A stretch of DNA of 64,000 nucleotides, taken from Candidatus Omnitrophota bacterium. Lineage in GTDB: Bacteria; Omnitrophota; Gorgyraeia; Gygaellales; Profunditerraquicolaceae. Positions 36,204-54,709 of this stretch are shown here, piece after piece (position 1 is the stretch's first letter; every line of letters begins with the position of its first letter). The stretch spans positions 920,359 through 984,358 of the forward strand of contig CAWDSS010000010.1 of assembly GCA_963805065.1 (NCBI GenBank). Reading direction: 5' to 3'. The notes beneath the pieces were generated by a model. The model ran no database searches. It was given only the letters and a program-made list of their open reading frames with translations, and was not told the DNA's origin. The position numbers and the translations under genes are program-made.

Positions 36204-36282
36204 GAGAAACATCGGGCTGGACTTAAAACGTTTCAGCCCTTTTTGTTTACTATTACCATTTTGAAATGGAAGTGGTATAATT
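36204..36282 (+). repeat. 79-bp perfect direct repeat, copy A (terminator hairpin plus extended -10 promoter)
   Basis: Identical to 54631-54709. Contains GGGCTG...CAGCCC plus TTTTT and TGGTATAAT. Confidence 0.9.
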
Positions 36283-36318
36283 GATGAAAATAAAGGAGCG
36301 GGTCAGTCCGCATAGCTT

Positions 36319-36876
36319 ATGGCCAATATGAAGAAAATTATAATAGCTGCAATAGTGCTTGTTTTTATTTTATGTTACAATTTTTGTATTGCGGGTGAGG
36401 TTGACATCGATTTGTTCGGGTTTTCCTTTCATTTCAACAAACTTGGTGCTTATAGGGAAGCTTCGCTTAAGTTGGATAACAATGGGAAATGGGTATTCAA
36501 TCCAGGCATAGGTTTGGGTTATGATTTTCGCAGCAGCATAAAAAGCGAAGGATTTTCACCAATTGTCCAGGGAGGATTTTTCGAGAACTGCTCCAGTAAA
36601 CCTTTTTTGTTCGGCGGTGCAGGGGTAAGATACAGGAAGTTCATACTTGGAAAACTATTTTGGGAGGCAAATGCGCTTGGGATGCTTACCTATGCAAGGG
36701 ACTGGGATGATGAAAGGCCTCAATTTAGTGTTTTGCCTTATGGGAACATGGGCATTGGTTATGATTTTGGAAATAATCTTGTAACATTTTCAGTCAGCTA
36801 TGTGCCCCAGAATGGTAGCACTGCTATAGGAAACGATACAGACATGTTGTTTATAAATTTGGCAGTTTCTTTTTAA
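36319..36876 (+). CDS. Putative outer-membrane beta-barrel protein
   Basis: Signal peptide, alternating beta-strand pattern, and C-terminal ...NLAVSF ending in Phe. Confidence 0.5.
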   Translation: MANMKKIIIAAIVLVFILCYNFCIAGEVDIDLFGFSFHFNKLGAYREASLKLDNNGKWVFNPGIGLGYDFRSSIKSEGFSPIVQGGFFENCSSKPFLFGGAGVRYRKFILGKLFWEANALGMLTYARDWDDERPQFSVLPYGNMGIGYDFGNNLVTFSVSYVPQNGSTAIGNDTDMLFINLAVSF

Positions 36877-37093
36877 AAGAAAAAATATGAGCATTAGGAC
36901 TTTGCTCACTAAATTGCTTACAATTTTGTAATTTGTGATAGAATGTATTGCAGACTAATGCTTTTATTCTGTAACGCAAAAAGTTATTCCCGCCAAAAAG
37001 AGGCGGGATTTCGCTAGATAAAAGATTAAGGTTCTCAAAAACTCGTCTACGAGGGGAGATTATAATTTCAAAAATAAGGGGGGTGAAAAAGAT

Positions 37094-37538
37094 ATGAAGA
37101 AGGCATTTCTTGCATTATTTGCTGTTGCGTTCGTTACTTCTATGTGTTTTGCCGAAGAGCCGGTCATCAGCGATTATCCACTCAAGCTTCCAGCAATGCT
37201 GCTGCTCCAGCGCAAGTTCCCAGCGCTACTGCTGCTCCAACCCAACCGCCAGCCAGCACTACTTCTACGGCCTCGGCTAAAACCACTACTTTTACCGGTA
37301 AAGTAGATTCTGTATCGAGCGGGATAGTATGGGGTAAATCCGCAGATTATCGTCAAAGATGATAATGGACAGGGGACGACCTTTACGGTAGCAAGTGACG
37401 CTACTGTCATTGGTAAAGATGGAAATTCGACTACTGTAGATTGGATAAACAAGGATGATAAAGTCAGCATAGACTACATTGCGAATCACGGACGGTAGCA
37501 AAACGGCTAAATCCATTAAAGTGTCAGCAGGTTGGTAG
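37094..37538 (+). pseudogene. Small secreted protein gene disrupted by at least 3 frameshifts
   Basis: The signal peptide (frame of 37094), the Ala/Pro/Thr linker (frame of 37144), the beta-rich body (IIVKDDNGQGTTFTV...) and the tail (DGSKTAKSIKVSAGW) lie in different frames. It is related in design to the intact gene at 47568-47903. Confidence 0.6.
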
Positions 37539-37615
37539 AAAAAGATAAACTAGTCTAAAATGAGCAGACGGCTTACAGAGCGCAAGCGATGTAAGCCGTA
37601 GCTGTTTATACAAAG

Positions 37616-37877
37616 AAATCTTCTCGCTGAGTCGCGTCTGTCTTGTCTGTGTTTCTCGGGAACGCTCGCATTTCCCCAGCGTGGAAATGCTTCGCTCAGG
37701 TCGGCTGCGTCGCTCTCCCGCATCCGGGCCGTATATAAATCCGTTTTTTTAATTTAGGAGCCGGATGCGGGAACCGTGCCCGCTCCTTGCCTCCATGTCC
37801 CTCGAAATCACAGCCAAGCCAGCCGCTCATAACTATGTTAGCTCGAAACATGCCTCGTCACCCGCTGGCGAGAATTT
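37616..37877 (+). repeat. Structured palindromic element, diverged copy 3
   Basis: Shares ACGCTCGCATTTCC-CCAGCGT-GGAAATGCTTCGCTCAG and the 3' end CTCGAAACATGCCTCGTCACCCGC with copy 2. The middle is replaced by an 11-bp stem CCCGCATCCGG...CCGGATGCGGG. Confidence 0.6.
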
Positions 37878-38031
37878 ATAGTTGAATAACCCACCAATTA
37901 GCAGTAGAATATCCTTGACAATGGATTGAATATAATGTATAAAATAGACAATAATTCAGTGTGGTATGTTTCGAAGGGGGAACTGCCACGTTAAAATAAC
38001 TAAAACCTTCGCTCATAAGGCGGAGGTTTTT

Positions 38032-38817
38032 ATGTTTAATGACATGAAAGAAAGCATAAGTCTTCTAGAAATTAAACTCCCAAAAGAATTTGTAAATAAA
38101 ATAATTTGTGGTGATGCCATTGAGGTTATGAAGAAGATCTCTACCGGGTCGATAGATTTAGTCGTTACCTCTCCTCCTTATAATCTCAAGAATTCTACCG
38201 GAAATGGCATGAAAGATGGAAGAGGGGGAAAATGGGCAAATGCTGCTTTGCAGAAGGGATATACTCATCATAATGATTGTATGCCTCATGATGAATATGT
38301 AAGATGGCAACGAGATTGTTTAGTAGAAATGATGAGGATTATTCCCGATACTGGAGCCATATTCTATAACCATAAACGCAGGGTTCAAGGTGGTTTATTA
38401 CAGGATCGACAGGATATTATTGAAGGTTTTCCTGTTAGGCAAATCATCATCTGGAAGCGTAAAGGGGGTTTAAACTTTAATGCAGGCTATTTTCTCCCAA
38501 CCTACGAAGTTATTTATTTGATAGCAAAGCCAAAATTTAAACTTGTGCCTAAAGCCAATGCGTATGGCGATGTTTGGGAATTTACTCAAGAAATGAATAA
38601 TGATCATCCCGCAGCATTTCCAGTTAATCTGATTGAAAGGATTGTCTCATCTACAAATGCAAAAATTGTTCTTGATCCATTTATGGGCTCTGGTACTACA
38701 GCAATCGCCGCTATAAATTTCAAGAGAAATTTTGTCGGTATTGATATTTCTCCCGAATATTGTGAGATGGCAAGAAAAAGAATTAAGCAGCATCAAGCCC
38801 AAGGTAAACTTTGGTAA
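38032..38817 (+). CDS. Beta-class DNA methyltransferase, probably N4-cytosine-specific
   Basis: Motif IV TSPPYN lies N-terminal to motif I DPFMGSGTT (beta order). GGAGG SD 5 nt before ATG 38032; the ORF is also open from 37966. Confidence 0.85.
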   Translation: MFNDMKESISLLEIKLPKEFVNKIICGDAIEVMKKISTGSIDLVVTSPPYNLKNSTGNGMKDGRGGKWANAALQKGYTHHNDCMPHDEYVRWQRDCLVEMMRIIPDTGAIFYNHKRRVQGGLLQDRQDIIEGFPVRQIIIWKRKGGLNFNAGYFLPTYEVIYLIAKPKFKLVPKANAYGDVWEFTQEMNNDHPAAFPVNLIERIVSSTNAKIVLDPFMGSGTTAIAAINFKRNFVGIDISPEYCEMARKRIKQHQAQGKLW

Positions 38818-38821
38818 TCCT

Positions 38822-39604
38822 ATGGTAAAGAAAACAGTTGTTTATACTAAACAAAATATAATAGATAGGCTTAAGGAAATTAGTGCGTTAGGTTGGATTA
38901 AAAACGCTCGTCCTGGCAATGCTGGCGGTGTTGGGAATACATTAGAAGACTTGTTAGGTATAGAAGAAAATAATTTGCCTATTCCTAATGCAGCAGAATG
39001 GGAATTAAAATGCCAAAGGATAGGTACGGATTCTTTAACGACACTTTTTCACATGGAACCTTCTCCGCGCGCTATAGGGTTTGTACCTAAGGTGCTTTTG
39101 CCACTTTATGGATGGAAGCACCAAACAATACCAGGAGAAAAGAGCTTTAGACAGACTATAAATGGTTTGTCTTGCTCCGATAGAGGCTTTAAAGTTGTTG
39201 TTGATCGGGCTGCTCGTAAGGTGCTGATTTCTTTTAATGCTAAATGCGTATCCGATAAACATAGAAAATGGCTTAATTCTGTAGAAAAGAAAATAGGCTT
39301 GGCTGAATTGAATCCTCAACCATACTGGGGATTTGATGATCTTTTCCATAAGGCAGGAACAAAGCTGCTGAATTGTTTTTACATACGTGCTGAAGCGAAA
39401 ACTGAAAAAAGAAAAGAATATTTTTGGTATAAAGAAATTATGATTTTGCAAAAGTTTAGTCTGGATAAATTTATAAAGGCTATTGAAGACGGCTTTATTC
39501 TCGTAGATTTCGATGCTCGCACAGGCCATAACCACGGGACAAAATTTAGACTTAGACAAGATAGAATGCCAGAATTATATGAAGATGTAAGGAGGATTGA
39601 ATAG
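38822..39604 (+). CDS. Type II restriction endonuclease, MvaI/BcnI (MutH-like) family candidate
   Basis: Starts 4 nt after the methylase stop. GGVGNTLEDLLGIEENNLPIPNAAEWELKCQR matches the MutH/Sau3AI/BcnI-type G..lE..lG..ENN...D/E.ElK core as I recall it. Confidence 0.65.
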   Translation: MVKKTVVYTKQNIIDRLKEISALGWIKNARPGNAGGVGNTLEDLLGIEENNLPIPNAAEWELKCQRIGTDSLTTLFHMEPSPRAIGFVPKVLLPLYGWKHQTIPGEKSFRQTINGLSCSDRGFKVVVDRAARKVLISFNAKCVSDKHRKWLNSVEKKIGLAELNPQPYWGFDDLFHKAGTKLLNCFYIRAEAKTEKRKEYFWYKEIMILQKFSLDKFIKAIEDGFILVDFDARTGHNHGTKFRLRQDRMPELYEDVRRIE

Positions 39605-39682
39605 AAATACTATTGTCATAGTGCAAATTCTTGTATTGGAGTGAGCAATGAGGTTAAAGTAGATTAAATTCAAAGGCAACTT

Positions 39683-39710
39683 AAAAAACCAGGCAAATGC
39701 CTGGTTTTTT
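39683..39710 (+). terminator. Rho-independent terminator after the R-M pair
   Basis: AAAAAACCAGG-CAAATG-CCTGGTTTTTT. Confidence 0.8.
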
Positions 39711-39853
39711 AATCCTGAGCGGAGCGAAGGATCTTTCTAGAAGATAGGGGGTTGCCTTTTTTATTCCTACCTTGTAGATGAGCATGTGGATAAGGCGGTG
39801 GAGAAATTGGAGTTTTAAAATATTGAGAGTGTTCTAGTTATAAGGAGGATTTA

Positions 39854-40519
39854 ATGAATGACTTATTTAAATTATCTGTTTCAATCATTTTAATTTCTAT
39901 TGGAATATTTTTTGGGTTTCCTCCATTAATAAAAATATTCTCAGCAATATTTAAAGTGACAATCTCGGAATCCACAAGCATTATCACAGTGTTAATCAAC
40001 TTTATAATGATTTTTATAATGATAATTACAATTTTTATAAGCAATAAATCTTCGCAAGAAGAAATAAAGAGTATTAAGGAGTCGACTCAAAGTTACATAA
40101 ATAAAACAGAAGAATTTAATAAAAAAACTAAAAGTGCTCTTCTGTCTGCCTTATTGCTAGAATTTAAAGAAAACATAAGGCTCGTCCGAGACACAGTTGC
40201 TGACCGCGATCTTTATATAAACCAAGCAGCAGCGTATTCTCCTTCAATTGCCTTTTCTTTCGAAACTTATCAGGCTAACCTGAATAATGCAACCATAGAT
40301 AATTATGAATTATTAGATCAAATAGTTAAGGTTTATAGCTCCTTCAGAATATTCCAAGGAATTTTTGAAATTAATAAGTTGCCCCACCAAACCAAAGAAT
40401 TTAGGGAGAAGAATATTAAGAAAGTTATAGAGAATATGGAAGTTAATTTAAACGAATACACGAAAATAGAACAAGAGATAGCTAGCTATAAGAAATCTAA
40501 TTATGATACAAATAATTAA
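39854..40519 (+). CDS. Membrane-anchored protein, function unknown (low GC)
   Basis: Two N-terminal TM helices and a helical cytoplasmic domain. SD AAGGAGG upstream. I recognise no family. Confidence 0.6.
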   Translation: MNDLFKLSVSIILISIGIFFGFPPLIKIFSAIFKVTISESTSIITVLINFIMIFIMIITIFISNKSSQEEIKSIKESTQSYINKTEEFNKKTKSALLSALLLEFKENIRLVRDTVADRDLYINQAAAYSPSIAFSFETYQANLNNATIDNYELLDQIVKVYSSFRIFQGIFEINKLPHQTKEFREKNIKKVIENMEVNLNEYTKIEQEIASYKKSNYDTNN

Positions 40520-40545
40520 GAATCTGTTTTATTGTATAAAATATT

Positions 40546-40563
40546 TGGGCACATTTTGGGCAC
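40546..40563 (+). promoter_or_regulatory. Box TGGGCACATTTTGGGCAC (sigma54-like GG-N10-GC, or an 11-bp-phased direct repeat)
   Basis: GG at 40548-40549 and GC at 40560-40561. Also readable as GGCACAT-TTTG-GGCACAG. 115 nt upstream of the ATG at 40679. Confidence 0.4.
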
Positions 40564-40621
40564 AGTGCTACGCGCATTAGATCATAACCGCTAGCAACGC
40601 AATAAATAATACATATCAGGT

Positions 40622-40640
40622 GTAGAACGAGGTGTTCTAA
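40622..40640 (+). promoter_or_regulatory. Inverted repeat GTAGAAC-N5-GTTCTAA in the leader
   Basis: A 7-5-7 inverted repeat lying 38 nt upstream of the start codon and ~60 nt downstream of the box. Confidence 0.4.
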
Positions 40641-40678
40641 TCTAAAAGAATCATATCAACTTGTTAGGAGGAATAAAT

Positions 40679-41806
40679 ATGGATTCTAAAGAAAAACATG
40701 AATGGGCGCGTCATTACGATGGTTTATCTTGGTCAGTAGCCACTATAATGTCTACGGCTATAGGTGGTCTTCTGTTATATCTCAGCTCTGTATTTAATCT
40801 AATATTAGCGTTTACAGTAATAAATTTAATAATTTTATCAGTTTATTTCGCTGCAAGTTTTAGAGAACTAAGATTCATATTTCAGGATATCGAGAACGAT
40901 GATATTAAAATATTCGTTGATCATAGATCATTCCTTCAATGGTGGCCGTACCTCTTTATTTTTATGTTTTTATGTTTAATTTGGGTAGGCATATTGTTTA
41001 AAAATCTCCCGGAAGGTAAAATTTATTGGCTAATAATTGCACTTGTTAATCTTATTTTTATTATAGCTGTGGGTTTTAGAGCAAACGGAAACAACTTAAA
41101 AGACCGCATTAAGAATATTCGAGAAAAGAAAAAGTTTAATAAGTTAGATCGTCATTTTTGGTTGATTATTATTACAGTCATTATGGCTCTAGAAGTCTTA
41201 TTGGTTTCTTTGTTTTTTTCTAGAAAGGACATAAAAGTGAAAAATAGCTCGTGGATTCATTTAAGTATAAATCTTGATAATTACGAAAAGACGATAATGA
41301 AATTACATAATGATGCAATTCAGGAGAAGCCCACAGGCATTTATAAAGACTTAATATGTTACCTTGAAGATGTAGTTAATTCATCAAAAGAGTTAATAAA
41401 TAGATATTTTTATCTTTTTGAACCTAACCCACATCTTTTCTTAGCGTTAGAAGTAAAAGATGAGAAGAATATCGAGTTGATTAAGAATAAAATTAAAGAT
41501 ATAAAAAAGCCAAATTTTATTGCTTCGATTACAATTGATATAAATACTAAAGATGAATCAAATGGACAAGCCGCTGTCGATTTCTTTTATGCAGGAACTA
41601 AGTATGCATTCTTTAGAGTAAGCGATAATTATAAACCGGGATATACGAATAATAATGAAGTGAAATTAGTTCATTGTTTTGCTAACCAATTATTCGTTAC
41701 TAATATTAACGAAATAAAATTTTATGTAAGATGTTTGCAACATAGAGGTGTTTCTATAGAAAAGAAAACAATAGAAAGTGAGTTGATCAATCAGAGCAAG
41801 AAATAA
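40679..41806 (+). CDS. Polytopic membrane protein with a C-terminal soluble domain, function unknown (low GC)
   Basis: AGGAGG SD 7 nt before ATG 40679. About 5 TM helices. The C-terminal segment RYFYLFEPNPHLFLALEV faintly resembles the F.RY.DP.PHLRLR signature of Lant_dehydr_C/SpaB_C domains. Confidence 0.6.
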   Translation: MDSKEKHEWARHYDGLSWSVATIMSTAIGGLLLYLSSVFNLILAFTVINLIILSVYFAASFRELRFIFQDIENDDIKIFVDHRSFLQWWPYLFIFMFLCLIWVGILFKNLPEGKIYWLIIALVNLIFIIAVGFRANGNNLKDRIKNIREKKKFNKLDRHFWLIIITVIMALEVLLVSLFFSRKDIKVKNSSWIHLSINLDNYEKTIMKLHNDAIQEKPTGIYKDLICYLEDVVNSSKELINRYFYLFEPNPHLFLALEVKDEKNIELIKNKIKDIKKPNFIASITIDINTKDESNGQAAVDFFYAGTKYAFFRVSDNYKPGYTNNNEVKLVHCFANQLFVTNINEIKFYVRCLQHRGVSIEKKTIESELINQSKK

Positions 41807-41831
41807 TAGTCGCTTGGTGGCCGTAATATAT

Positions 41832-41850
41832 TTAGGCACATTTTGGGCAC
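41832..41850 (+). promoter_or_regulatory. Box TTAGGCACATTTTGGGCAC (second copy)
   Basis: GG at 41835-41836 and GC at 41847-41848. 124 nt upstream of the ATG at 41974. Confidence 0.4.
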
Positions 41851-41906
41851 AGTTTTCTTCTTTGAGTTGATAACTATTTACTAAGCAATAACTAACATAA
41901 AGTGAG

Positions 41907-41925
41907 TTAGAACAGTATATTCTAA
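41907..41925 (+). promoter_or_regulatory. Inverted repeat TTAGAAC-AGTAT-ATTCTAA
   Basis: Identical 19-mer at 44371-44389. Starts 59 nt after the GC of the box. Confidence 0.4.
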
Positions 41926-41973
41926 TACAGACTAAGAACAAGGTGATGTATACCTTATTTTGCAGGAGGGGGC

Positions 41974-42537
41974 ATGAAAAAATCTATCGGAGCTAAAACT
42001 ATTGTTTTTCCAACGCCGGTTTTTATTATAGGAACATATGATAAATCTGGTAAGCCAAATGCCATGGTCGTTGCTTGGGGTGGAATATGTTGTTCTGATC
42101 CTCCATGCGTTAGCATTTCTTTGCGAGAGGCCACATACACTTATGGTAATATTCTGGAAAGAAGGGCTTTTACCGTCAGTATCCCTTCAGAAAAATACAT
42201 AAAAGAAGCTGATTACTTTGGCATTGTTTCAGGCAGGACAGAAGATAAGTTTTCTTCGACAGGACTTACTCCTGTAAAGAGTGAACTCGTGGATGCTCCT
42301 TATATCAAAGAGTTTCCTTTCATTTTAGAATGTAGTCTTCTGCAATCTGTTAAAATCGGATTGCATACACTGTTCATCGGCCAAATCAAAGATGCGAAAA
42401 CAGATGAAGAAGTGTTAGTAAAAGGAGAGTTTCCTGATATTGAAAAAATAAAACCAATGATTTTTAATCCTGCAAATCGCACTTATTATGGCGTAGGTAA
42501 ATATCTTAGCAATGCATTTTCTGTTGGAAAAAAGTAA
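41974..42537 (+). CDS. Flavin reductase-like (FMN-binding split-barrel) protein
   Basis: 187 aa ([33 protein letters not shown]), typical of the flavoredoxin/flavin reductase family. Confidence 0.8.
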
Positions 42538-42561
42538 AAAGAAATACAAGACGCTTTACTC

Positions 42562-42586
42562 AACTCATTACAAATTAATGAGTTTT
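42562..42586 (+). terminator. Rho-independent terminator
   Basis: AACTCATTA-CAAAT-TAATGAGTT followed by TTTT. Confidence 0.7.
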
Positions 42587-42708
42587 GCAACAAATCTATG
42601 ACCATTTGACAAAAAGGCAGAATAGCCAAAAGATTTGTTTCCTAACTCGTTATTCGGGATATAATTAGATAAAGCGTCTTGTAAACGTATAAAGGAGAAG
42701 GTGAAACC

Positions 42709-43251
42709 ATGGAATATAGAAAGAATATGACAGAGCAGGAAGTTCGGGATGCCCTTGAATACGCCGAAAACATCATAGACGCCGTGCGTGAACCCTTAGT
42801 AGTCCTGGATGGGGATTTAAGGGTAATTTCAGCCAGTAATTCGTTCTACGATTTTTTTAAGGTCAAGCCAGAGGAAACTGAGAAGCAATTAATCTATAGC
42901 TTGGGAAACCGTCAATGGGATATTCCTAAGCTGCGAGAACTACTGGAAGAAATCATTCCCAATAATGCAGCCTTTTATGACTTTGAAGTTAAGCATGGTT
43001 TTCCGAATATCGGTGAACGGATAATGATGCTAAATGCCAGGCGGATACCCAGGCCTCCAGAAAAGCCACGGGTGATCCTCCTTGCCATTGAAGATATTAC
43101 CGGCAGCAGGATGTTGCAGAACATTCACGAGAAGATGCATGATTTAGAGATACACATTAAAGCATCATTGGGCAGGGAATTAAAGATTGTAGGGTTGGAG
43201 GAGAAGATAGAAGAATTACGAGCAGATTTAGATAAAATCCGCAAACTTTAA
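42709..43251 (+). CDS. Stand-alone PAS-domain protein with a C-terminal coiled coil
   Basis: PAS of the type found N-terminal in CheR/CheB-PAS-kinase fusions (ALEYAENIIDAVREPLVVLDGDLRVISASNSFYDFF, GNRQWDIPKLRELLEE, LLAIEDIT). Confidence 0.8.
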   Translation: MEYRKNMTEQEVRDALEYAENIIDAVREPLVVLDGDLRVISASNSFYDFFKVKPEETEKQLIYSLGNRQWDIPKLRELLEEIIPNNAAFYDFEVKHGFPNIGERIMMLNARRIPRPPEKPRVILLAIEDITGSRMLQNIHEKMHDLEIHIKASLGRELKIVGLEEKIEELRADLDKIRKL

Positions 43252-43302
43252 GTTTTTTAAAATGGAGCGGACATGGTATAATTAGAACAAAAGGAGCGAG
43301 AA

Positions 43303-43413
43303 ATGGCACAGCCTAAAAATAAAAAATCAAGATGGAAAACACTTATACACAAGAAGCACAGCGTAGAATTTGTTGGTGTATTAAAGAAAGGTAAAAAATG
43401 CTCAACAAAATGA
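43303..43413 (+). CDS. Possible 36-aa basic small protein
   Basis: AAGGAG SD 7 nt upstream and a TGGTATAAT extended -10 at 43274-43282. Sequence MAQPKNKKSRWKTLIHKKHSVEFVGVLKKGKKCSTK. No homology evidence. Confidence 0.3.
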   Translation: MAQPKNKKSRWKTLIHKKHSVEFVGVLKKGKKCSTK

Positions 43414-44389: not shown

Positions 44390-44418
44390 TTCCATTAGAA
44401 GTAGAATGAGGTGTTATT

Positions 44419-47037: not shown

Positions 47038-47514
47038 ATGAAAAGAATCTTTTTTTTGTTTGCTCTATTTATCTTCAGCGGCTGCGCGAACGTACAGGTA
47101 ACGATGTATAATAAGAATGTCCATTATCCTGCGACGGATCCGAAGACTATCGAGGTCTTCCAGAAAAAACCGGAAGACAGGAAATTTGTTGAGATTGGAG
47201 AAATAACCGTTGATAGAGCATCGAGCATGGATCAGGTTGAGCAAATATTCAGGACTAAAGCCGCAGAATACGGAGGTGATGCAGTATATGTATATAGTAT
47301 TACACAACAAACCAGTACATATGTAGATTCTCCTCGCGTAGCCTACTCTCACGAAGGTTTTTCTTATCCTCGTGGACGCTATTCTTCTCGCACGCATTAT
47401 CATCCTCATTACGCTCATCATTTCCAGCATTATTATTACTGTTGTGGCTATAATGTTGAGACCGTTAGTTATCTAACCGTTGTAGGCATTGTCATAAGAT
47501 ATGCTCAGCCTTAA
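47038..47514 (+). CDS. Lipoprotein with a His/Tyr/Cys-rich C-terminal region
   Basis: Lipobox IFSGC. The tail reads SRTHYHPHYAHHFQHYYYCCGYN. Promoter TTGATA-N16-TATAAT lies upstream. Confidence 0.6.
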   Translation: MKRIFFLFALFIFSGCANVQVTMYNKNVHYPATDPKTIEVFQKKPEDRKFVEIGEITVDRASSMDQVEQIFRTKAAEYGGDAVYVYSITQQTSTYVDSPRVAYSHEGFSYPRGRYSSRTHYHPHYAHHFQHYYYCCGYNVETVSYLTVVGIVIRYAQP

Positions 47515-47567
47515 TATTTGCGCATGCAGGATATAGTTATTGCCTATGATTTGAAAAGGAGTCAAAA

Positions 47568-47903
47568 ATGCTTAAAACTAAAGCAATCGCCTTTGCCTTG
47601 TTAATGGTAACGTTTATAGCTACTTTTGCCTATTCTCAGGAAAAAGTAGAAAATAGGCAGATAATAACTATTGTTGGGACAGTAACTAAAGTGGATTCTG
47701 TGAGCAACATCATTGTGGTAAAAACAGACAACGGACAAATGGTGCTTTCGGTCCCGGATGATATCATAGTTACTCAGGGCACGGATGAAATATGGCTTGA
47801 GGATATCTTAGATAATGATCCCGTAACTGTACAATATTACAGCCCTTCCCCCGGGAAATATGTCGTGGTCAGTATCGCTGATAATAACATGAGTGAGGAA
47901 TAG
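47568..47903 (+). CDS. Small secreted protein
   Basis: Signal peptide (ATFAYS-QE); 111 aa. Confidence 0.6.
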   Translation: MLKTKAIAFALLMVTFIATFAYSQEKVENRQIITIVGTVTKVDSVSNIIVVKTDNGQMVLSVPDDIIVTQGTDEIWLEDILDNDPVTVQYYSPSPGKYVVVSIADNNMSEE

Positions 47904-47929
47904 GATAAAATAAACAGAATGCAGAATTC

Positions 47930-49087
47930 ATGAAGATATCCAGCCGGCATAAAAAAGGCGCTCTCAGGACGAGAGTCGTTAGGAAAATAGAACAAGTTTC
48001 TCCTGAGGCATGGAATAGGGTTTTCCCGAACGTTCTGGAGGGTTATCACTTTTTTAAGACATTAGACGAATCCGGGTTCGATCAGTTCTCTTTCTATTAT
48101 ATTCTCGTCTATGAGGCCAAACGGCTTGTAGGGGCAGCGCCGTGTTTCTTCGTAGACTATCCTCTTGACACTAGTATCAACGGGCACCTGCGCCGTATCT
48201 CGAATGCTTTTAGGAAAGTTATGCCGAAGCTCTTTAGCATAAAAACGCTGGTGTGCGGCATTCCGATGGAGCAGGGGCATATTGGTATCGCAAGCGATCC
48301 TCCTCAGGCGGTGCTCGAGGCGATTCTGCGCCGTATGGAGCAGCTTGCGCGAAAGATGCGCGCTCACCTTATTGCGTTCAAAGACTTTGACCAGTCTTAT
48401 ACGGCGACTTTTGCTTTACTTCAGAATAATGGTTTTTTAAAAGTTGACGGCCTGCCATCAACAGAGCTTGCCATATCCTTTTCCAATTTTGAAGAATATC
48501 TAAAAACTTTAAGCGGGGCTACACGCTATGACCTTAGGAGGAAGCTTAAGAAAAGCTCAACTGTGAACATCGAGAAAACGATCGTAGATGCGCTCGATGA
48601 CAGAACCCTGGATGATGTATACCGGTTGTACTCTCAAATGGTTGAGAGGCACGAAATGGGCTTTGAAATCATTCCCGCCAAATTCTTTAAGCTCATTTCG
48701 CAAAATATGCCCCATCAGGTAAAATACTTTCTTTGGAGAATCGACGGAAAGCTTGTTGCCTTCCTTTTTTGCCTCGTTTCGGACACTCTCTTGATTGACT
48801 ATTTTTTAGGGCTTGATTACGCAGTGGCCCATCAGTATCATCTCTATTTCGTCAAATTTCATGACGTGATGAATTGGTGTCTTGCCCACGGCATCAAGAG
48901 ATACGAAATGGGCGTTACCGGATACGAACCAAAACGGAGATTAGGGTTTAATTTCGTGCCCCGCTATCTTTATGTCAAGATGCGATACCGGTGGCTGCGC
49001 CCTTTTTTCAGGGGCATTTGCATACTTCTTAAGTTTGAAAATTTTGATCCGGAGCTCAAACAGTGGCGCAGGAGAAGAGAATCATGA
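47930..49087 (+). CDS. FemAB-like / GNAT-fold acyltransferase family protein
   Basis: 385 aa. The organisation resembles BioF2-like/FemAB-type acetyltransferase proteins (RYDLRRKLKK, YFLGLDY, RYEMGVTG). Assignment is moderate. Confidence 0.55.
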   Translation: MKISSRHKKGALRTRVVRKIEQVSPEAWNRVFPNVLEGYHFFKTLDESGFDQFSFYYILVYEAKRLVGAAPCFFVDYPLDTSINGHLRRISNAFRKVMPKLFSIKTLVCGIPMEQGHIGIASDPPQAVLEAILRRMEQLARKMRAHLIAFKDFDQSYTATFALLQNNGFLKVDGLPSTELAISFSNFEEYLKTLSGATRYDLRRKLKKSSTVNIEKTIVDALDDRTLDDVYRLYSQMVERHEMGFEIIPAKFFKLISQNMPHQVKYFLWRIDGKLVAFLFCLVSDTLLIDYFLGLDYAVAHQYHLYFVKFHDVMNWCLAHGIKRYEMGVTGYEPKRRLGFNFVPRYLYVKMRYRWLRPFFRGICILLKFENFDPELKQWRRRRES

Positions 49088-49470
49088 AAATAGGCCAAAT
49101 TGCTCTAAGGATATTTTTTCTCATTATTGCCAATGACGTGCTGGATACCGGAGCGCAGCTTTTGATGAAGCGAGGGCTCGCCTCGGGATTCAATCTCTTT
49201 CATTTGGGTTCGCCCGACATGATCTTCTTGTGGCTTGGTGTCTTGGTCTTTGCCTTAACCTTTTTCATCTGGATGGTCATTTTACGCGAGGTTGACCTCA
49301 GCGTGGCGCTTCCGATTGGCAGCATGAGCTATATTATTATACCGGTGGTGGCCGTATTAATTTTGCACGAGCACGTGAATATTTTCAGGTGGGTGGGTAT
49401 CGTATTTATCGTGCTCGGGATATGTTTCGTATCGCAGACTAAAATGCGAAAGCGTGAGCACAATGTATAA
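49084..49470 (+). CDS. Small EamA-like 4-TM protein (ArnE/ArnF-like half transporter)
   Basis: ATGA start/stop overlap with the upstream gene; 4 TM helices. Confidence 0.6.
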   Translation: MKIGQIALRIFFLIIANDVLDTGAQLLMKRGLASGFNLFHLGSPDMIFLWLGVLVFALTFFIWMVILREVDLSVALPIGSMSYIIIPVVAVLILHEHVNIFRWVGIVFIVLGICFVSQTKMRKREHNV

Positions 49471-49834
49471 AATCATACTGCTGGTTTTATTGGCGGAAGT
49501 TTGCATGGGCACAGGCCAGATTTGCTTTAAGAAAAGCGTAAATAATCTGGGTGGTAACAGCAGCCGGTCTCTAGATGCGAAGCCGTTTTTTTTCAGGAAA
49601 TTGCTTGTAAAGCCTCTGTTGTGGGCCGGTATCGTTTCCATGGCACTGGGCCTTACCTTCTGGATCTCTGCTTTGTCCTTGGGAGATTTAAGTATTGTCT
49701 ATCCGCTCGGCAGCATGCAGTATGTTTTTGTCCTATTTGCCTCACATTTCTTTCTTGGTGAGGCTGTCGACAGAACGAAATTAATAGGAACAGCTTTGGT
49801 GATCCTGGGTATCGTTTTTATTACCCTAAGCTGA
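49454..49834 (+). CDS. Small EamA-like 4-TM protein (second half of the pair)
   Basis: Overlaps the previous gene by 17 nt; 4 TM helices (YPLGSMQYVFV). Confidence 0.6.
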   Translation: MSTMYKIILLVLLAEVCMGTGQICFKKSVNNLGGNSSRSLDAKPFFFRKLLVKPLLWAGIVSMALGLTFWISALSLGDLSIVYPLGSMQYVFVLFASHFFLGEAVDRTKLIGTALVILGIVFITLS

Positions 49835-49880
49835 AGACAGATAGCGTCCTGGGTGGACTCAATTTTAAAGGAGGAATAAA

Positions 49881-50471
49881 ATGAAAAAGATATCCCTGGT
49901 TATATTAGGCTTCCTTTTTCTTACCTCGCTATGTTTTGCTAAAGCACAAAATGCTTACCATAATAAGGAAGGGCACTTCTCATTTACTGTTCCTGGAGGG
50001 TGGAAAGAATATTCTCAAAGCGAATCGGATGCATTGGGTAGATATACAAGCCAAAAGACAGGCATAACTATAAGCTATATTGCAGCATTCAGTAAGCATG
50101 TTAAAGGCGGGCTTGCGGCTATAACTATACAAATGAATAACCGTAAGAAATATTCCGGGGAGGGGATAAAACAATTCGTAACTCCTACAAATCAACAAGC
50201 AACTGTTCCACATGCGGTGAAAGAACTTGTAAAAAATATCCCTATGGATTTTGGAAAGTATGTATATGACAAAGAGAGGAATATCGCTTTTCGCAAATCC
50301 GAATCGTATGCCGGCGGCAAAAAAATTATTGGCGTTGACGCGGTGATATTCAGCAATTACGGATTTATTACCCTGAATTTTAATACAAAGGAAGAAAATT
50401 TTGCTACCGCTTCAAACGATTTTAATCAAATTATGGATTCATTTAAGTTTGATAAAGGTTACGGATATTAA
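49881..50471 (+). CDS. Secreted protein, function unknown
   Basis: Signal peptide (SLCFA-KA); 196 aa. Confidence 0.6.
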   Translation: MKKISLVILGFLFLTSLCFAKAQNAYHNKEGHFSFTVPGGWKEYSQSESDALGRYTSQKTGITISYIAAFSKHVKGGLAAITIQMNNRKKYSGEGIKQFVTPTNQQATVPHAVKELVKNIPMDFGKYVYDKERNIAFRKSESYAGGKKIIGVDAVIFSNYGFITLNFNTKEENFATASNDFNQIMDSFKFDKGYGY

Positions 50472-50503
50472 GTAGAAAACCATGCCTGAATGGAATCCGC
50501 CTG

Positions 50504-50815
50504 ATGAATAAAAAACAATTAATAGCTGCCTGGGCATTAAGTATCTTAATAAGCATTACATCCTGCGGCAGTGCCTATTCTTATGTTAAAACCGTTAATC
50601 CCGTAAAATCCTATCATAAAGAAAATCTTTTTGATAAAATGCTATATAAAAAAGTTGTCCTGCCCGGAGGCGACAACAGGCCAGTATTAGTAAACCGCAT
50701 AACGGGGGAAGTTAAATATATATTGGTGAATAATAACCAATGGATACTCCTTACGGGCATGTGGAAGAAACAATGCCAAGCGAGGTATGACGCGCAAGTT
50801 GCCTCTAAAAAATAA
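50504..50815 (+). CDS. Small secreted protein or lipoprotein
   Basis: Signal/lipobox-like SITSC; 103 aa. Confidence 0.5.
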   Translation: MNKKQLIAAWALSILISITSCGSAYSYVKTVNPVKSYHKENLFDKMLYKKVVLPGGDNRPVLVNRITGEVKYILVNNNQWILLTGMWKKQCQARYDAQVASKK

Positions 50816-50854
50816 GCAAAGACAGTCAAGAGGCAGAAAAGAAATGAAGTATAA

Positions 50855-51199
50855 ATGAAAATGAAAGGATGGTATGAAATGAAAATGCTGTTTGTAGTAT
50901 TATTATGTTTAGGATTGGCAGGCTGCGCTTCAAATCATTATTTGTTAGAAACCGACCCTGCCCGGCTTTCCGATGCCAAGCTATTGGAATATTTTCATAA
51001 GCTTGATGCAGAAATAAGCCGGTTAGAAACAAATGTCAATCAGTATTCTTCTCCTGAACAATATAAATCTGCAGAGCACGGCACTGTAAATTTGATGCTT
51101 TTAACCAAAGGCAGTGCAAGCGACCTGAATGCGTTAAGGCTAAGAAGGACAGCTGTGCGCCTGGAATTGGAAAAAAGAGGCCTGCAAGTAAGAAAATAA
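50855..51199 (+). CDS. Lipoprotein
   Basis: Lipobox LGLAGC. An alternative start at 50879 (MKMLFVV) is likely. Confidence 0.55.
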   Translation: MKMKGWYEMKMLFVVLLCLGLAGCASNHYLLETDPARLSDAKLLEYFHKLDAEISRLETNVNQYSSPEQYKSAEHGTVNLMLLTKGSASDLNALRLRRTAVRLELEKRGLQVRK

Positions 51200-51352
51200 G
51201 AGTATAGCAAATCTTATAGTGGTATCCTACCAGGCGTATCCTTAGCTTTCTCTAAAAAATTTAACTTTTTATGTTTTAAAACACGATTTAACCATAACAA
51301 TTAGGCACAAAATAAAAGATGTAGTCTATATAATTATCTTAAAAGGTAAAAA

Positions 51353-52090
51353 ATGGGTTATTCTATAAAGAAATTATCTCTAATCATTGTCTCCCTTGTT
51401 TTGGTATTGTTTTTTTCTTTCATTGCGCTGTCTTTATTCTTTGACGAGGCAGTTTTTGTACGAAAAGGGACTTTTTACCATTTAAAGCTACACGATAAAA
51501 TTGTTGCATTGACTTTTGATGATGGGCCTAGTCCTATCTGGACCCCTAAAATATTAGATGAACTCAAAAAAGAGGAAATTAAAGCGACCTTCTTTATGCT
51601 TGGTAATCATGTAGAAAGATACCCCGAGGTCGCCAGACGAGTTTTAGCAGAAGGGCATGAGATAGGCAACCATACATATGACCACCATGTTTTACTTTGT
51701 TATACAATGGATGAGCTTGAAAAAGAAATAAAGCAGGCAGAAACGGCTATCAGGAATGCCACCGGTCGAACAACCACTTATTTTAGGCCTCCAAAGGCCT
51801 GGCTTACTGGGGCTGAAAAGCAGAAAATTAAAGATATGGGGTATAAGGTAGTGTTATGGTCGTTAAACTCTAAAGACTGGGTGACATTCCACGATAAACA
51901 GATTACTTCTTACATTTTAAGGCACATTCAGCCCGGGGATATTATTTTATTCCATGATAGTGGAGGGGCTTTTACTACTGAAGGCGGTGACCGCAGCCAA
52001 ACAGTTAAAACTATCCCGCGATTAGTCAGAAAATTAAGAGAAAGAGGCTATAGATTTGTAACAATAAGCGAGCTTTTAAGGCAACAATAG
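51353..52090 (+). CDS. Polysaccharide deacetylase (NodB homology domain)
   Basis: N-terminal TM helix; TFDDGP motif, HEIGNHTYDH, LFHD. Confidence 0.85.
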   Translation: MGYSIKKLSLIIVSLVLVLFFSFIALSLFFDEAVFVRKGTFYHLKLHDKIVALTFDDGPSPIWTPKILDELKKEEIKATFFMLGNHVERYPEVARRVLAEGHEIGNHTYDHHVLLCYTMDELEKEIKQAETAIRNATGRTTTYFRPPKAWLTGAEKQKIKDMGYKVVLWSLNSKDWVTFHDKQITSYILRHIQPGDIILFHDSGGAFTTEGGDRSQTVKTIPRLVRKLRERGYRFVTISELLRQQ

Positions 52091-52136
52091 ATTTTTAGGC
52101 AACTTTATTGTACAACGGCATATTTCAAAAAGCGCA

Positions 52137-52934
52137 ATGATACATAAAAACCGGATAGATTCAGGAATCCATCGTCATATGATAAAGTTACTGTGTTTTT
52201 GCTTATTAACTTCCTTAGCGATTTTTTTGAGTTCTTGCGCTACGGTTAGTAATCCTCCTATGCAGCAGGTGCCACAAGTCGGGAAACCTATTTGCAGCGT
52301 GGTAGGTAACAACATCATCCATATAGTAGCTCCCGGGGAAACGCTTTGGCACATAAGCAAGACCTACGGTATCCCAATGATAGATATAATACAGGCAAAT
52401 AATTTAAGGAAAGCTTCTCAGTTGGAAAAGGGGCAGCGGCTTGTAATACCGAATGCTGCCACGACAAAAGCGGTAATCCCTTTATACCAAGGCAGAAAAT
52501 GGAAGTATATTATAATCCATCACAGTGCAACCGATACAGGAGACGCATATTATTTTAATATATTGCATAGGCGTAGAGGTTGGAATGAGATAGGCTACGA
52601 TTTTGTTATAGATAATGGAACAAAAGGTAAGCAGGACGGCGCGATTGAAGTCTCGCCACGCTGGATAAACCAGGAAGACGGGGCTCATTGTCATGCCTCA
52701 GATATGAATTCCCAAGGAATCGGTATCTGCCTCGTAGGGAATTTTAGCAAAGAGCAAGTTTCTGAAAAACAGATGGATTCATTGGTATATTTGGTAAATG
52801 TTTTAAAGAAATATTATAGTATTCCCATGAGTCATATTCTGGGGCACGGCCAAGTTCCGGGAGCAAGGACAGAATGTCCTGGAAAATACTTCCCATGGCG
52901 AGAATTCAGGGATAAATTAAAGAATTGCGGATAA
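52137..52934 (+). CDS. LysM-domain N-acetylmuramoyl-L-alanine amidase (Amidase_2/PGRP type)
   Basis: Lipobox FLSSC; LysM (HIVAPGETLWHISKTYGI...LVIP); amidase motifs IIIHHSAT, GYDFVID, TECPG. Confidence 0.85.
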   Translation: MIHKNRIDSGIHRHMIKLLCFCLLTSLAIFLSSCATVSNPPMQQVPQVGKPICSVVGNNIIHIVAPGETLWHISKTYGIPMIDIIQANNLRKASQLEKGQRLVIPNAATTKAVIPLYQGRKWKYIIIHHSATDTGDAYYFNILHRRRGWNEIGYDFVIDNGTKGKQDGAIEVSPRWINQEDGAHCHASDMNSQGIGICLVGNFSKEQVSEKQMDSLVYLVNVLKKYYSIPMSHILGHGQVPGARTECPGKYFPWREFRDKLKNCG

Positions 52935-53061
52935 TACGTTAACAAGGATTAAATGAAACATTATAAAATAATAATAGTAATTATTTTTCTTACAATAATT
53001 TCCTTTTGGATATTTCACAATTTAATAAGCCTAAAAAGCTATTAAAGCATAAAGTTAAGCC

Positions 53062-53754
53062 GTGTCAGCGGCAGTTAGGGGCCGTATAGCTATAGTGCTT
53101 GATGATTGGGGTTATAATATGACCAATATTCCCGCCCTTTCTGATATAAAGGATCCTATAACGATATCCATCCTCCCTAATTTGCCATACTCAAAGCAAG
53201 TTGCTGAAGATGTTAAGAAAAGGGGTTATCAAGTCATACTGCATCTTCCTTTGGAATCTAAAGGTAATGAGCATCCGGAAAAAGATACGCTTTATTGCAA
53301 TATGGGTGAACGTGAAATAACCGAAAAGCTTAAACAAATGTTAACGAGTATTCCGGGTATATCAGGCGTAAATAACCACCAGGGTTCTAAAGCCACTGAA
53401 GATGCAAGAATGATGAGTATTGTATTATCAGAATTAAAGAGGGAAGGGCTATTCTTTTTGGATAGTTTTAGTACCAATAAATCAGTTTGTTCAAAAGTCG
53501 CAAAGGCAATAGGAATAAGATATGCCAAAAGAGATATTTTTATGGATATGCCACCCTCTAAATTACAAGATAGTGAACTTCGTGTCTATATACAAGGACA
53601 ATTAGATAAATTGTGTGGAATTGCGATAAAAAAAGGATATGCTATTGGTATAGGACATAGCCGGAAGGTGACGTTGGATGTATTGAGAAATGTTATCCCT
53701 CAATTGAAAAAGAAAGGGATAAAGTTTGTTTTTGTTTCGGAATTGGTAAGATGA
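53062..53754 (+). CDS. Divergent polysaccharide deacetylase (YibQ-like)
   Basis: RIAIVLDDWGYN, NNHQGS. GTG start. A 30-aa TM mini-ORF (52953-53045) in another frame may be its displaced N-terminus. Confidence 0.7.
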   Translation: MSAAVRGRIAIVLDDWGYNMTNIPALSDIKDPITISILPNLPYSKQVAEDVKKRGYQVILHLPLESKGNEHPEKDTLYCNMGEREITEKLKQMLTSIPGISGVNNHQGSKATEDARMMSIVLSELKREGLFFLDSFSTNKSVCSKVAKAIGIRYAKRDIFMDMPPSKLQDSELRVYIQGQLDKLCGIAIKKGYAIGIGHSRKVTLDVLRNVIPQLKKKGIKFVFVSELVR

Positions 53755-53782
53755 CCTTGAAGGAGCTAATGAGGTAGAAAAA

Positions 53783-54607
53783 ATGTCCATAAAACAAAAG
53801 AAGATTCTAAAAATAGTTGCAAAAACAACTGTAGGGTTATTGATATGTATAGCAGGTTTTTATTTCTTTTGGCTTTACCCGAGATATACGGTTCCCATAC
53901 TTACTTATCATAGCTTTGATTATGCAAAAGGATTGTTATCCGTTTCCCCGGAAAACTTTGAAAGACAGATGCGCTATCTTAAAGATGAGGGCTTCAGAGT
54001 TATCCCCTTAGATGAATTGGTTGAGGGTATAAAAAATAAGAAAAAGTTTGCACATAATGCCGTTGTTATTACCATAGACGACGGTTATGAAAATAACTTT
54101 ACTTACGCCTATCCCATCTTGGAAAAATATGGTTTTCCAGCGGTAATATTCTTAATTACTAATAACATGGGAACCAATGCAGGTTTTTTGAATTGGGACG
54201 AAGTTAAAGAGATGTCTAAGCATAACATTTCTTTTGGCGGGCATACAAAAAACCATGTTTATTTGCCTTCAGTAAAGAAAGAAGATATTCTATGGGATGA
54301 AATAGCCGGCTGTAAAAAAGCTATTGAAGAGCACACCGGAATACCGGTTGATTATTTTTGTTATCCCTTGGGCGGGTTTACAGAAGAAGCGGAAATGGTG
54401 GCTAAGAGAGCAGGATATAAAGGAGCTTGTGTAACTAACCGTGGCGACGATATATTGAATAAGTATAATGTTTATGAATTAAATAGAGTTTCCGTGAGAA
54501 ATGGTAATCCGTATTTTTCATTCTCTAACTTTTTTGCTCCAATTAGATTCCGGGCTAAATTAACAGGTTATTACAATATTTTCAGAAAAGAGAAAAGGGG
54601 AGAATAA
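53783..54607 (+). CDS. Polysaccharide deacetylase (NodB domain) with an N-terminal TM anchor
   Basis: VVITIDDGYEN, GGHTKNHV. Confidence 0.85.
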   Translation: MSIKQKKILKIVAKTTVGLLICIAGFYFFWLYPRYTVPILTYHSFDYAKGLLSVSPENFERQMRYLKDEGFRVIPLDELVEGIKNKKKFAHNAVVITIDDGYENNFTYAYPILEKYGFPAVIFLITNNMGTNAGFLNWDEVKEMSKHNISFGGHTKNHVYLPSVKKEDILWDEIAGCKKAIEEHTGIPVDYFCYPLGGFTEEAEMVAKRAGYKGACVTNRGDDILNKYNVYELNRVSVRNGNPYFSFSNFFAPIRFRAKLTGYYNIFRKEKRGE

Positions 54608-54630
54608 ACAATCGTAGCAAGTTCATTACA

Positions 54631-54709
54631 GAGAAACATCGGGCTGGACTTAAAACGTTTCAGCCCTTTTTGTTTACTATTACCATTTTGAAATGGAAGT
54701 GGTATAATT
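54631..54709 (+). repeat. 79-bp perfect direct repeat, copy B
   Basis: Identical to 36204-36282. Confidence 0.9.

Follow-up and report, generated by a model that had tools for sequence, protein, structure and literature searches.

What does a long, perfect direct repeat in non-coding DNA mark: the two ends of a mobile element, or something that genomes simply reuse? The question is raised by a 64,000-nucleotide stretch of the genome of a Candidatus Omnitrophota bacterium (the window, to which all coordinates refer unless another contig is named), in which an identical 79-bp sequence, here called the cassette, occurs just after a tRNA-Phe gene (copy A) and again at the far end of an 18.4-kb segment (copy B). 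The original prediction, made from the sequence alone, had seen in this pair the brackets of an accessory segment and had considered attL/attR-like attachment-site ends among the explanations. To place the pair in context, the window was compared with related genomes and with metagenome contigs, which are referred to by L numbers. Collectively, the results suggest that the 79-mer is probably a composite of stock intergenic modules that are reused between unrelated genes and not the ends of a mobile element, that it lies inside a 24-kb variable region built by several events, and that copy B was patched into its present position.

The two copies are identical at 79 of 79 positions, and the match extends to 82 nucleotides with one mismatch. 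Beyond these 79-82 nucleotides the sequences outside both copies diverge at once. Sub-patterns of 29-32 nucleotides taken from the 79-mer matched only these two sites in the 64-kb window with up to three mismatches tolerated, and shuffled sequence (100 shuffles) gave zero matches to them. The parts of the two copies are as follows.

36204..36282, + strand: cassette copy A, consisting of a box tail (36204-36213), a hairpin (36214-36239) and a T-run (36240-36244), followed by the promoter
36253-36258, 36256-36269 and 36273-36281, + strand: predicted promoter of copy A, with the -35 element TTACCA, the palindrome CCATTT-TG-AAATGG and the extended -10 element TGgTATAAT, respectively
54631..54709, + strand: cassette copy B, consisting of an orphan GTGCCC-box tail (54631-54640), a hairpin (54641-54666) and a T-run (54667-54671), followed by the promoter
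54680-54685 and 54700-54708, + strand: predicted promoter of copy B, -35 element and extended -10 element, respectively

The hairpin, GGGCTGGACTTAAAACGTTTCAGCCC (GGGCTG..CAGCCC), is followed immediately by TTTTT, the two together spanning 36214-36244 and 54641-54671. RNA folding of the hairpin gave -14.2 kcal/mol (z = -3.6). Copy A begins 97 nucleotides past tRNA-Phe, in agreement with the earlier estimate of about 100 bp, and its hairpin lies 107 nucleotides past the tRNA gene; the hairpin of copy B lies 34 nucleotides past the stop codon of a deacetylase gene. The stable GC-rich hairpin, the immediate U-run and the position 3' of a transcription unit predict a Rho-independent terminator, which a simple terminator scan overlooks solely because the loop is longer than 8 nucleotides. 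Downstream of it, TTACCA-17 nucleotides-TATAAT with a preceding TG scored 10/12 against the consensus and was the best promoter-like site in both scanned regions, so predicted to be a promoter; the copies end 36 nucleotides (copy A) and 31 nucleotides (copy B) before a start codon. Sequence comparison, fold and promoter scan thus bore out the original description of a perfect repeat that joins a terminator hairpin to an extended -10 promoter. With its GC-rich stem, its T-run, its TG one base 5' of the -10 element and a ribosome-binding site soon after, the cassette resembles an intrinsic terminator followed by a sigma-70 extended -10 promoter. In contrast to this cassette, an ordinary terminator or promoter does not keep every base, down to its loop or spacer, when unrelated loci of different species are compared.

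An imperfect 30-bp palindrome, TACTATTACCATTT-TG-AAATGGAAGTGGTA, covers the interval from the -35 to the -10 element of the predicted promoter, and its arms CCATT/AATGG are retained in a promoter variant in L003, CCATTTCGTAATGG. The palindrome could be the operator of some regulator. Rfam returned no family at gathering thresholds on the whole window except the two tRNAs, and at a permissive E-value it returned nothing apart from these tRNAs on 36-38 kb and 44.2-45.1 kb. We also considered a miniature inverted-repeat transposable element (MITE) or another small transposable element, and rejected it: GAGAAACATC.. at one end of the 79-mer and ..GGTATAATT at the other do not form inverted repeats, and the flanks showed no target-site duplication.

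To determine whether the parts of the cassette occur elsewhere, we scanned the 26-nucleotide hairpin exactly against one genome per species, and the 27-nucleotide promoter core, ACCATTTYGWAATGGAAGTGGTATAAT, against metagenome contigs, whose taxonomy was taken from labelled matches to metagenome-assembled genomes (MAGs) alone. The hairpin was found exactly in 6 contigs of 4 other MAGs. Omnitrophota is the label of five of these contigs, and a single MAG accounts for three of the contigs. The six loci represent unrelated contexts, and two of them lie upstream of tRNA genes. The promoter core was found at 68 loci, which with L003 make 69 fetched loci; these hold 75 exact copies of the core in front of at least 61 distinct downstream contexts, and a ribosome-binding site follows within 25 nucleotides in 57 of the 75. 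About 12 promoter copies follow the hairpin or its shorter-loop variant, GGGCTGGACTTAACCGTTCAGCCC. In L028, the unit from hairpin to promoter matches that of the window at 69 of 70 nucleotides; it has a small gene on one side and a PP-loop ATPase gene on the other. A further promoter copy 460 nucleotides upstream leaves the small gene bracketed by direct cassette repeats. The cassette spacer of L019, TTTTTGTTTACTATT, is identical to that of the window. Two or three promoter copies bracket genes in L024, L028, L029, L049, L061 and L074. Direct cassette repeats around genes are normal in these genomes. Neither the hairpin nor the promoter module was found in IMG/VR viral contigs, and a phage-borne origin is therefore not supported.

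Orthologous genes vary in whether they carry a cassette. This holds for the gene downstream of copy A, which encodes 185 amino acids (aa), for a PAS gene, for the deacetylase gene at 51353, and for the gene downstream of copy B, here called gene F. In L016, L063 and L068 the PAS gene has the cassette promoter; in the window (43255-43282) it has no more than a diverged form. The deacetylase gene has the promoter in L072 but lacks it in the window.

We then asked where the shared gene order breaks. The features that define the breaks are these.

36035..36107, + strand: tRNA-Phe(GAA), called by ARAGORN and Rfam, the last feature collinear with five relatives
36100..36166, + strand: 3' end of tRNA-Phe plus 10 nucleotides (CTCGGCACTTAATTTTA), with a second copy 50 nucleotides downstream (1 mismatch) and a small hairpin between the two
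36113..60291: whole variable region, 24.2 kb, from tRNA-Phe to the cold-shock gene and tRNA-Thr
60292-60492, - strand: cold-shock protein gene, conserved right flank
60701-60776: tRNA-Thr(CGT), conserved right flank of the variable region, matching L075:20697-21296 together with the cold-shock gene

Five relatives (L075, L083, L084, L046 and L010) are collinear with the window as far as tRNA-Phe. The shared order stops at 36112-36116, and each relative has different DNA afterwards. The 385-kb contig L075 is collinear with window positions 23729-36112, continues with 4.0 kb (UbiA, Zip and DUF1646) and then has the cold-shock gene and tRNA-Thr(CGT), which are 80-99% identical at the nucleotide level to window positions 60295-60778. 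Its tRNA-Thr follows tRNA-Phe by 4.5 kb; in the window the two tRNA genes are 24.6 kb apart. The right break of the shared order is therefore at 60295, at the cold-shock gene and tRNA-Thr, 5.6 kb past copy B. In L010 the two tRNA genes are 2.1 kb apart, with a promoter-driven small gene and an rve-type transposase gene between them. After tRNA-Phe, L083 has an iron-related cluster, L084 has PLD, AbiEii, an HsdM fragment, HTH_17 and PIN, and L046 has small TPR-type genes. The GC profile that the original prediction had proposed gave 0.384 for the variable region compared with 0.417 on its left side, with a range of 0.30-0.46 inside; the segment enclosed by the repeats has 0.379. On this gene order, it is not the 79-mers that border the variable region but tRNA-Phe, with its 3' end, on the left and the cold-shock gene on the right, and the GC values are in keeping with a mosaic that arose stepwise. 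As had been proposed, the DNA between the repeats is accessory at this locus, but the repeats are not its borders.

The duplication of CTCGGCACTTAATTTTA may be an att-type scar or a native tRNA trailer. Its sole repeat is the one at a distance of 50 nucleotides; a search of the window for a distal copy of this tRNA end found none. In other contigs, tRNA-Phe 3' fragments without the full tRNA, followed by the trailer hairpin of the window, occur at L023:~1010-1091 and L039:1368-1440 (minus strand), and at L046:4378-4445 a second CCCTCCCTCGGCA lies 8 nucleotides past tRNA-Phe. The fragments in L023, L039 and L046 look like att scars of elements that target tRNA-Phe.

The genes in front of which the two copies stand provide a second set of breaks.

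36319..36876, + strand: 185-aa gene, product secreted or outer-membrane-like with no Pfam hit, 3' of copy A
54741..55927, + strand: gene F, thioredoxin-like/CcdA-like membrane protein, frameshifted near 55.69-55.73 kb, 3' of copy B
55938..56599, + strand: genes D (130 aa) and E (90 aa), forming the F-D-E module with gene F, 86.9% nucleotide identity and collinear with L082:9777-11566
37478..54630: block missing between neighbouring orthologues in L079/L080, left limit uncertain (37152-37500)

The genes at 36319 and 54741 stand under the same predicted promoter, as first noted, and their products are unrelated (BLASTP E = 1.4, that is, no similarity). Since the downstream products are non-homologous and the flanks diverge, the 79-mer pair is not a gene duplication. 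Orthologues of the 185-aa protein share 78-86% identity; in L080 and L081 their genes have other upstream DNA, from which the canonical cassette is absent. The product of gene F has 329 aa compared with ~394 aa in homologues, and its C-terminus is readable in another frame, which confirms the frameshifted gene suspected just past copy B. The F-D-E order is kept in L082, with 86.9% nucleotide identity across 1.8 kb, and also occurs in the contig of P0126 (395/129/94 aa). The upstream neighbour of gene F differs in each genome examined and is DUF2062, a cation ATPase, VanZ, or HTH_17 with a phage-type integrase (two of the contexts without DNA). In the relatives with DNA (L080 and L082), gene F is operonic and has no cassette.

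In L079/L080 the two sets of genes are neighbours. The order there is the 185-aa gene, a small gene, a 128-aa gene, D and E, VanZ, F, and a gene weakly similar to window positions 37343-37477, all within ~4 kb, and the orthologues of the 185-aa gene and of D-E-F lie within 3.5 kb. The window counterparts are 36319-36876 for the 185-aa gene (84% nucleotide identity), 37054-37152 for the small gene, 55931-56623 for D and E, and 54834-55927 for F. The genes downstream of copy A and copy B are 1.7 kb apart in a sixth relative. Because the 185-aa gene neighbours the F-D-E orthologues in L079/L080, the insertion is placed after the 185-aa gene: some 17.5 kb appear to have entered there, with a left limit near 37.2-37.5 kb instead of at copy A and a right limit at 54.63 kb.

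If the borders lie elsewhere, how did two perfect copies come to stand 18 kb apart? The sequences at the left ends of the copies suggest an answer.

36179..36213, + strand: GTGCCC box GTGCGCAAAATGTGCCCA with tail TTCAATGGAGAAACATC, the last 10 nucleotides of the tail being the left end of the 79-mer
54613..54630, + strand: truncated 'CATAGCAAGTTCTTTACA' (CATAGC) box, here CGTAGCAAGTTCATTACA, abutting copy B directly

Within the 79-mer, the left 10 nucleotides, GAGAAACATC, are all that sets the window pair apart from the rest of the family, as 24 other copies of the hairpin have different 5' flanks. At copy A, GAGAAACATC is the tail of an intact GTGCCC box, whereas at copy B it stands alone beside a truncated, different box. 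Homologous GTGCCC boxes are present in L023 and L039, with tails ..GTAGAAACATC and ..ACAGAAACATC, and three more lie in reverse orientation in the window (40546-40563, 41833-41850 and 44297-44314). Full CATAGCAAGTTCTTTACA boxes in L030, L040, L079/L080 and L082 continue differently past ..TTTA[CT]A. The orphan GAGAAACATC therefore points to copy B as the recipient: it is probably a patch of 79-82 nucleotides from copy A or from another A-type composite. It is from this anatomy, and not from an observed event, that we infer the direction of copying, and the mechanism likewise.

The two boxes belong to a larger system of intergenic boxes, whose sites in the window include 63118-63155 and 54613-54630. 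Recurring boxes in Omnitrophota contigs comprise CCCGCCCCAAAGTAAAGGAGCAGTTTARGTAA, a tandem GTGCCCA box GTGCCCAAAATGTGCCCA with tail TCCAATGTAGAAACATC, the CATAGCMAGTTCTTTACA box, and two further boxes, 'CCCGTTAGATTTCCCCACTTCTTACGTCTATTA' and 'CAGGATGTTGTGAACGCAATACAACA'. At least seven recurring boxes are combined differently across L008-L074 (for example in L050, L024 and L039) and in the window, between unrelated genes.

The window has three other repeated sequences. A perfect 27-nucleotide non-coding repeat, ATATAATTATATCTAATATTTGCACGA, lies at 44263-44289 and 47001-47027, upstream of two unrelated genes, and a near-identical copy lies upstream of the 185-aa orthologue at L079:220-245 and L080:1417-1442; it is a putative further module, promoter or leader, that is reused. 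Reuse also applies to a third type of promoter: (C)TAAATTGCTTRCAATTTTGNAATTTGTGRTAGAAT at window positions 36904-36954 is 92% identical to L013:1275-1325 and L027:5060-5110 and also occurs in L001, L002 and L024. A REP- or MITE-like family (REP, repetitive extragenic palindromic) of ~150-210 nucleotides with the palindrome TTTCCCCAGCGTGGAAA is present at 10339-10494, 12403-12558 and 37652-37865, the third copy lying at the left edge of a restriction-modification module.

The explanation that we consider probable combines these results. The cassette would be a composite of a 10-nucleotide GTGCCC-box tail, a Rho-independent terminator hairpin with its T-run, and a strong sigma-70-type promoter that overlaps an imperfect palindrome. 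The hairpin and T-run would stop upstream transcription, that of tRNA-Phe at copy A and that of the deacetylase genes at copy B, and the promoter would restart transcription with a short leader into the 185-aa gene (copy A) or the frameshifted gene F (copy B). Mosaic accessory DNA of ~17.5 kb would have been inserted between the 185-aa gene and the F-D-E module. This insertion and rearrangement may have cost F-D-E its native upstream partner, and an A-type composite would then have been patched in front, likely by non-reciprocal recombination (promoter propagation), giving the displaced F-D-E module its own promoter. Gene F is now frameshifted, and selection for the patched promoter was perhaps transient or absent. 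In principle, the 79 bp of direct homology could mediate RecA-dependent deletion of the 18.4 kb; nothing in the data shows such a deletion.

Several points weigh against this explanation. The promoter-core loci were found by exact match, so that their counts are biased and the invariance is overstated. The GAGAAACATC comparison covers, within the source genome, the 64-kb window and, elsewhere, the 24 other hairpin copies. Finally, close relatives of the window are poor in canonical cassettes, and L075, L077 and L079-L084 have none; two perfect copies 18 kb apart are thus less expected if family conservation alone is at work, and could mark a single recent event.

A broader reading goes further than the reuse of modules. 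Omnitrophota would possess a phylum-wide toolkit of intergenic modules: the terminator hairpin, conserved down to its loop, the tandem GTGCCCA box, several further boxes, and the promoter with its invariant 27-nucleotide core and CCATTT-N2-AAATGG palindrome. These modules would be actively copied between unrelated genes and between genomes. A single regulator would act on them as portable regulatory units, and the homology that they carry along would drive the shuffling of gene modules at hotspots such as tRNA-Phe; the 79-bp pair would then have been caught in the act, with B made from A. We regard this reading as tentative, and doubt it more than we favour it.

Among the alternatives, a single homologous-recombination insertion takes the two copies as true ends: an 18.35-kb DNA, circular or linear, that carried a cassette would have recombined at a chromosomal cassette upstream of gene F, and the segment would be deletable by RecA. 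The repeats are indeed direct and perfect, 79 bp is above the minimal length for RecA-dependent recombination, the enclosed DNA has accessory content and a lower GC content (0.379 compared with 0.417), and a cassette common to several genomes could serve as portable homology. However, the 185-aa gene must then have arrived with the payload, although in L079/L080 its orthologue sits on the chromosome next to the F-D-E orthologues. In GC content, too, the block is a mosaic (0.30 to 0.46), and on its left side copy B adjoins a different, truncated box, which is what a short patch would leave. The original prediction had suggested a search of related genomes for an empty site carrying one repeat copy; no relative examined has the arrangement of tRNA-Phe, cassette and gene F. 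We consider a single insertion unlikely.

It is also conceivable that the two copies are independent, older members of the family, kept identical by sequence constraint without direct copying. The L028 unit, which differs by 1 nucleotide despite other flanking genes, and the 27-nucleotide promoter core, invariant in 75 copies, are in keeping with such constraint. What speaks against it is the shared left end. GAGAAACATC is outside the family consensus, the 24 other hairpin copies differ there, and it belongs to a neighbouring box that is present beside copy A only. Constraint is also not absolute, as the orthologous promoter at 43255-43282 has diverged in this lineage. Independent conservation of both copies therefore has, in our judgement, only a slim chance of being correct.

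An assembly artefact, in which the assembler threaded a foreign 18-kb path between identical 79-bp repeats, has to be weighed for any metagenome-derived genome. The short-read Logan contig L078 starts within the cassette at window position 36253, as it would at a branch point of an assembly graph, and it differs from the window at 37156-37185; the lower GC content of the segment could be read in the same way. However, L079/L080 support the linkage of the 185-aa gene and F-D-E, GTGCCC boxes and other repeats are common to the segment and its surroundings, and the length of the contig (1.19 Mb) suggests that the repeats were spanned. This makes an artefact very improbable. With regard to the same L078, the gene for a small secreted protein at 37094-37500 has an apparent frameshift in the window; L078:833-955 (sample ERR10755942) is in frame and 8 nucleotides shorter at 37156-37185, and this difference is either a strain polymorphism or a local assembly error.

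The attL/attR of a site-specific integrative element can be dismissed as the least credible reading: the repeats are direct and close to a tRNA gene, integrative elements seem to target tRNA-Phe in this clade, and one relative has a phage-type integrase upstream of its gene F homologue, but no recombinase gene was found at 36-60 kb of the window, the 79-mer does not overlap the tRNA, the window lacks a distal repeat of the end of tRNA-Phe, the cassette sequence is at dozens of unrelated loci, and the gene-order breaks (36112-36116 and 60295 compared with L075; ~37.2-37.5 and 54.63 kb compared with L079/L080) are not at the repeats. An integrase-type genomic island bounded by the 79-mers was likewise rejected, having failed all four defining tests (recombinase, tRNA-end core, borders and end-specific repeat). 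The original prediction had stated that multi-copy occurrence of the 79-mer at unrelated loci, together with conservation of the enclosed genes as core content, would speak against it; the modules are indeed multi-copy at unrelated loci, whereas the enclosed genes are not conserved at this locus in any relative examined.

Is such a composite of a known kind? Short intergenic modules that are present in many copies at gene ends, in variable order and some of them with hairpins, are familiar from the pneumococcal BOX elements (boxA/B/C) and from the REP elements and bacterial interspersed mosaic elements (BIMEs) of Escherichia coli. The modules described here likewise are several, short and intergenic, with many copies in variable combinations, but they differ in having clear terminator and promoter anatomy. 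They are not known to be related in sequence to BOX, REP or BIME. As a difference from REP and BIME, no RAYT-type (REP-associated tyrosine) transposase was seen here, although none was specifically looked for.

A closer resemblance is to putative mobile promoters, which are highly similar sequences of 50-100 nucleotides located upstream of non-homologous genes in one genome (Matus-Garcia, Nijveen & van Passel 2012, Nucleic Acids Res 40:10032; PMC3488235). Some of their families are shared across genera, and they are neither insertion sequence (IS) elements nor riboswitches (PMC3488235). The variable cassette carriage of orthologous genes is the pattern that Matus-Garcia et al. call promoter propagation (PMC3488235). 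In our case, 79 nucleotides at 100% identity precede two unrelated genes, within the defined range of 50-100 nucleotides with at least 80% identity before at least two genes, the downstream genes are non-homologous, and the predicted promoter stands in at least 61 contexts elsewhere. No IS, MITE or riboswitch accounts for the sequence, as there is no Rfam match, there are no terminal inverted repeats and there is no transposase nearby. Differences are that the promoter here travels or recombines with discrete modules (the hairpin, the GTGCCC box and other boxes), that its 27-nucleotide core, spacer included, is invariant and palindromic, and that the hosts are uncultivated Omnitrophota. Our literature search found no paper that pairs Omnitrophota with such a promoter.

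The locus also shares features with tRNA-linked genomic islands. The variable part begins precisely where a tRNA gene ends, and no two relatives have the same content there; genes for restriction-modification and toxin-antitoxin systems and IS genes are found in the window, L084 and L010, and tRNA-3' fragments resembling att scars occur in L023, L039 and L046. Unlike such islands, the window has neither an integrase nor a distal tRNA-end repeat, and the 79-mers are internal, not borders. With several of its genes frameshifted, the region has the look of a mosaic that is old and in decay. Promoters that are reused or mobile are a known kind, and so are modular repeats between genes at variable loci linked to a tRNA; what stands out is how invariant the modules are across the family in Omnitrophota.

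For annotation, this means that the 79-bp repeats should not be marked as island ends, and that the real variable region is the ~24 kb from tRNA-Phe to the cold-shock gene and tRNA-Thr. Shared cassettes explain assembly breaks, or possible mis-joins, at such sites. An uncultivated phylum that looks host-dependent appears to draw repeatedly on a few terminator and promoter modules that hardly vary. For organisms without genetics, these are candidates for use as promoter and terminator parts and as a regulon marker. The pair provides a concrete putative example of promoter propagation in which the direction of copying is readable from an orphan box tail.

The contents of the inserted block agree with the earlier description of a restriction-modification pair, low-GC membrane proteins and envelope-remodelling genes, which Pfam, PADLOC and GC content confirmed. 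Two of its modules are given here by position.

37966-39604: N4/N6 methyltransferase and MvaI/BcnI-type restriction enzyme (type II)
39854-41806: two membrane proteins of unknown family, ~30% GC

The mosaic at 37478..54630 comprises a REP-like repeat, the type II restriction-modification pair, the low-GC membrane proteins, a flavin reductase, two PAS paralogues, a frameshifted or split DUF6036-like nucleotidyltransferase, a Dph6-like ATPase, a FemAB-like protein, EamA proteins, three polysaccharide deacetylases and an Amidase_2/LysM protein. Pfam scans of all open reading frames (ORFs) of at least 100 aa between 36 and 60 kb detected no integrase or transposase domain, as the original prediction had also reported. 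PADLOC recognised only the type II restriction-modification pair and had no match for the unknown membrane proteins, for the PAS proteins or for the DUF6036-like pair. The methyltransferase and the MvaI/BcnI endonuclease share the 513-residue PADLOC profile PDLC03305, at positions 10-243 and 245-508. Since both proteins fall on one profile, fused versions exist elsewhere, and here they are encoded by separate adjacent genes. A stretch at 44411-44639 (ORF 44419-44640, 73 aa) is 80-90% identical in nucleotides to L001:1030-1234 and L022:2800-3028, far above the neighbouring genes; it gave no Pfam or Rfam hit and may be a small conserved protein or RNA.

Outside the variable region, the patatin-like protein at 32289-34301 has best homologues with 67-81% identity, and those with a source name are Omnitrophota/Omnitrophica. 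A SNF-family transporter gene and a CDP-alcohol phosphatidyltransferase gene lie between HycI/DUF3568 and tRNA-Phe in L046, L075, L083 and L084, and both are absent from window positions 35556-36035. The cold-shock gene at the right border has a paralogue in the window, and the two form a 210-nucleotide inverted repeat of 72% identity (13346-13555 on the + strand and 60292-60501 on the - strand).

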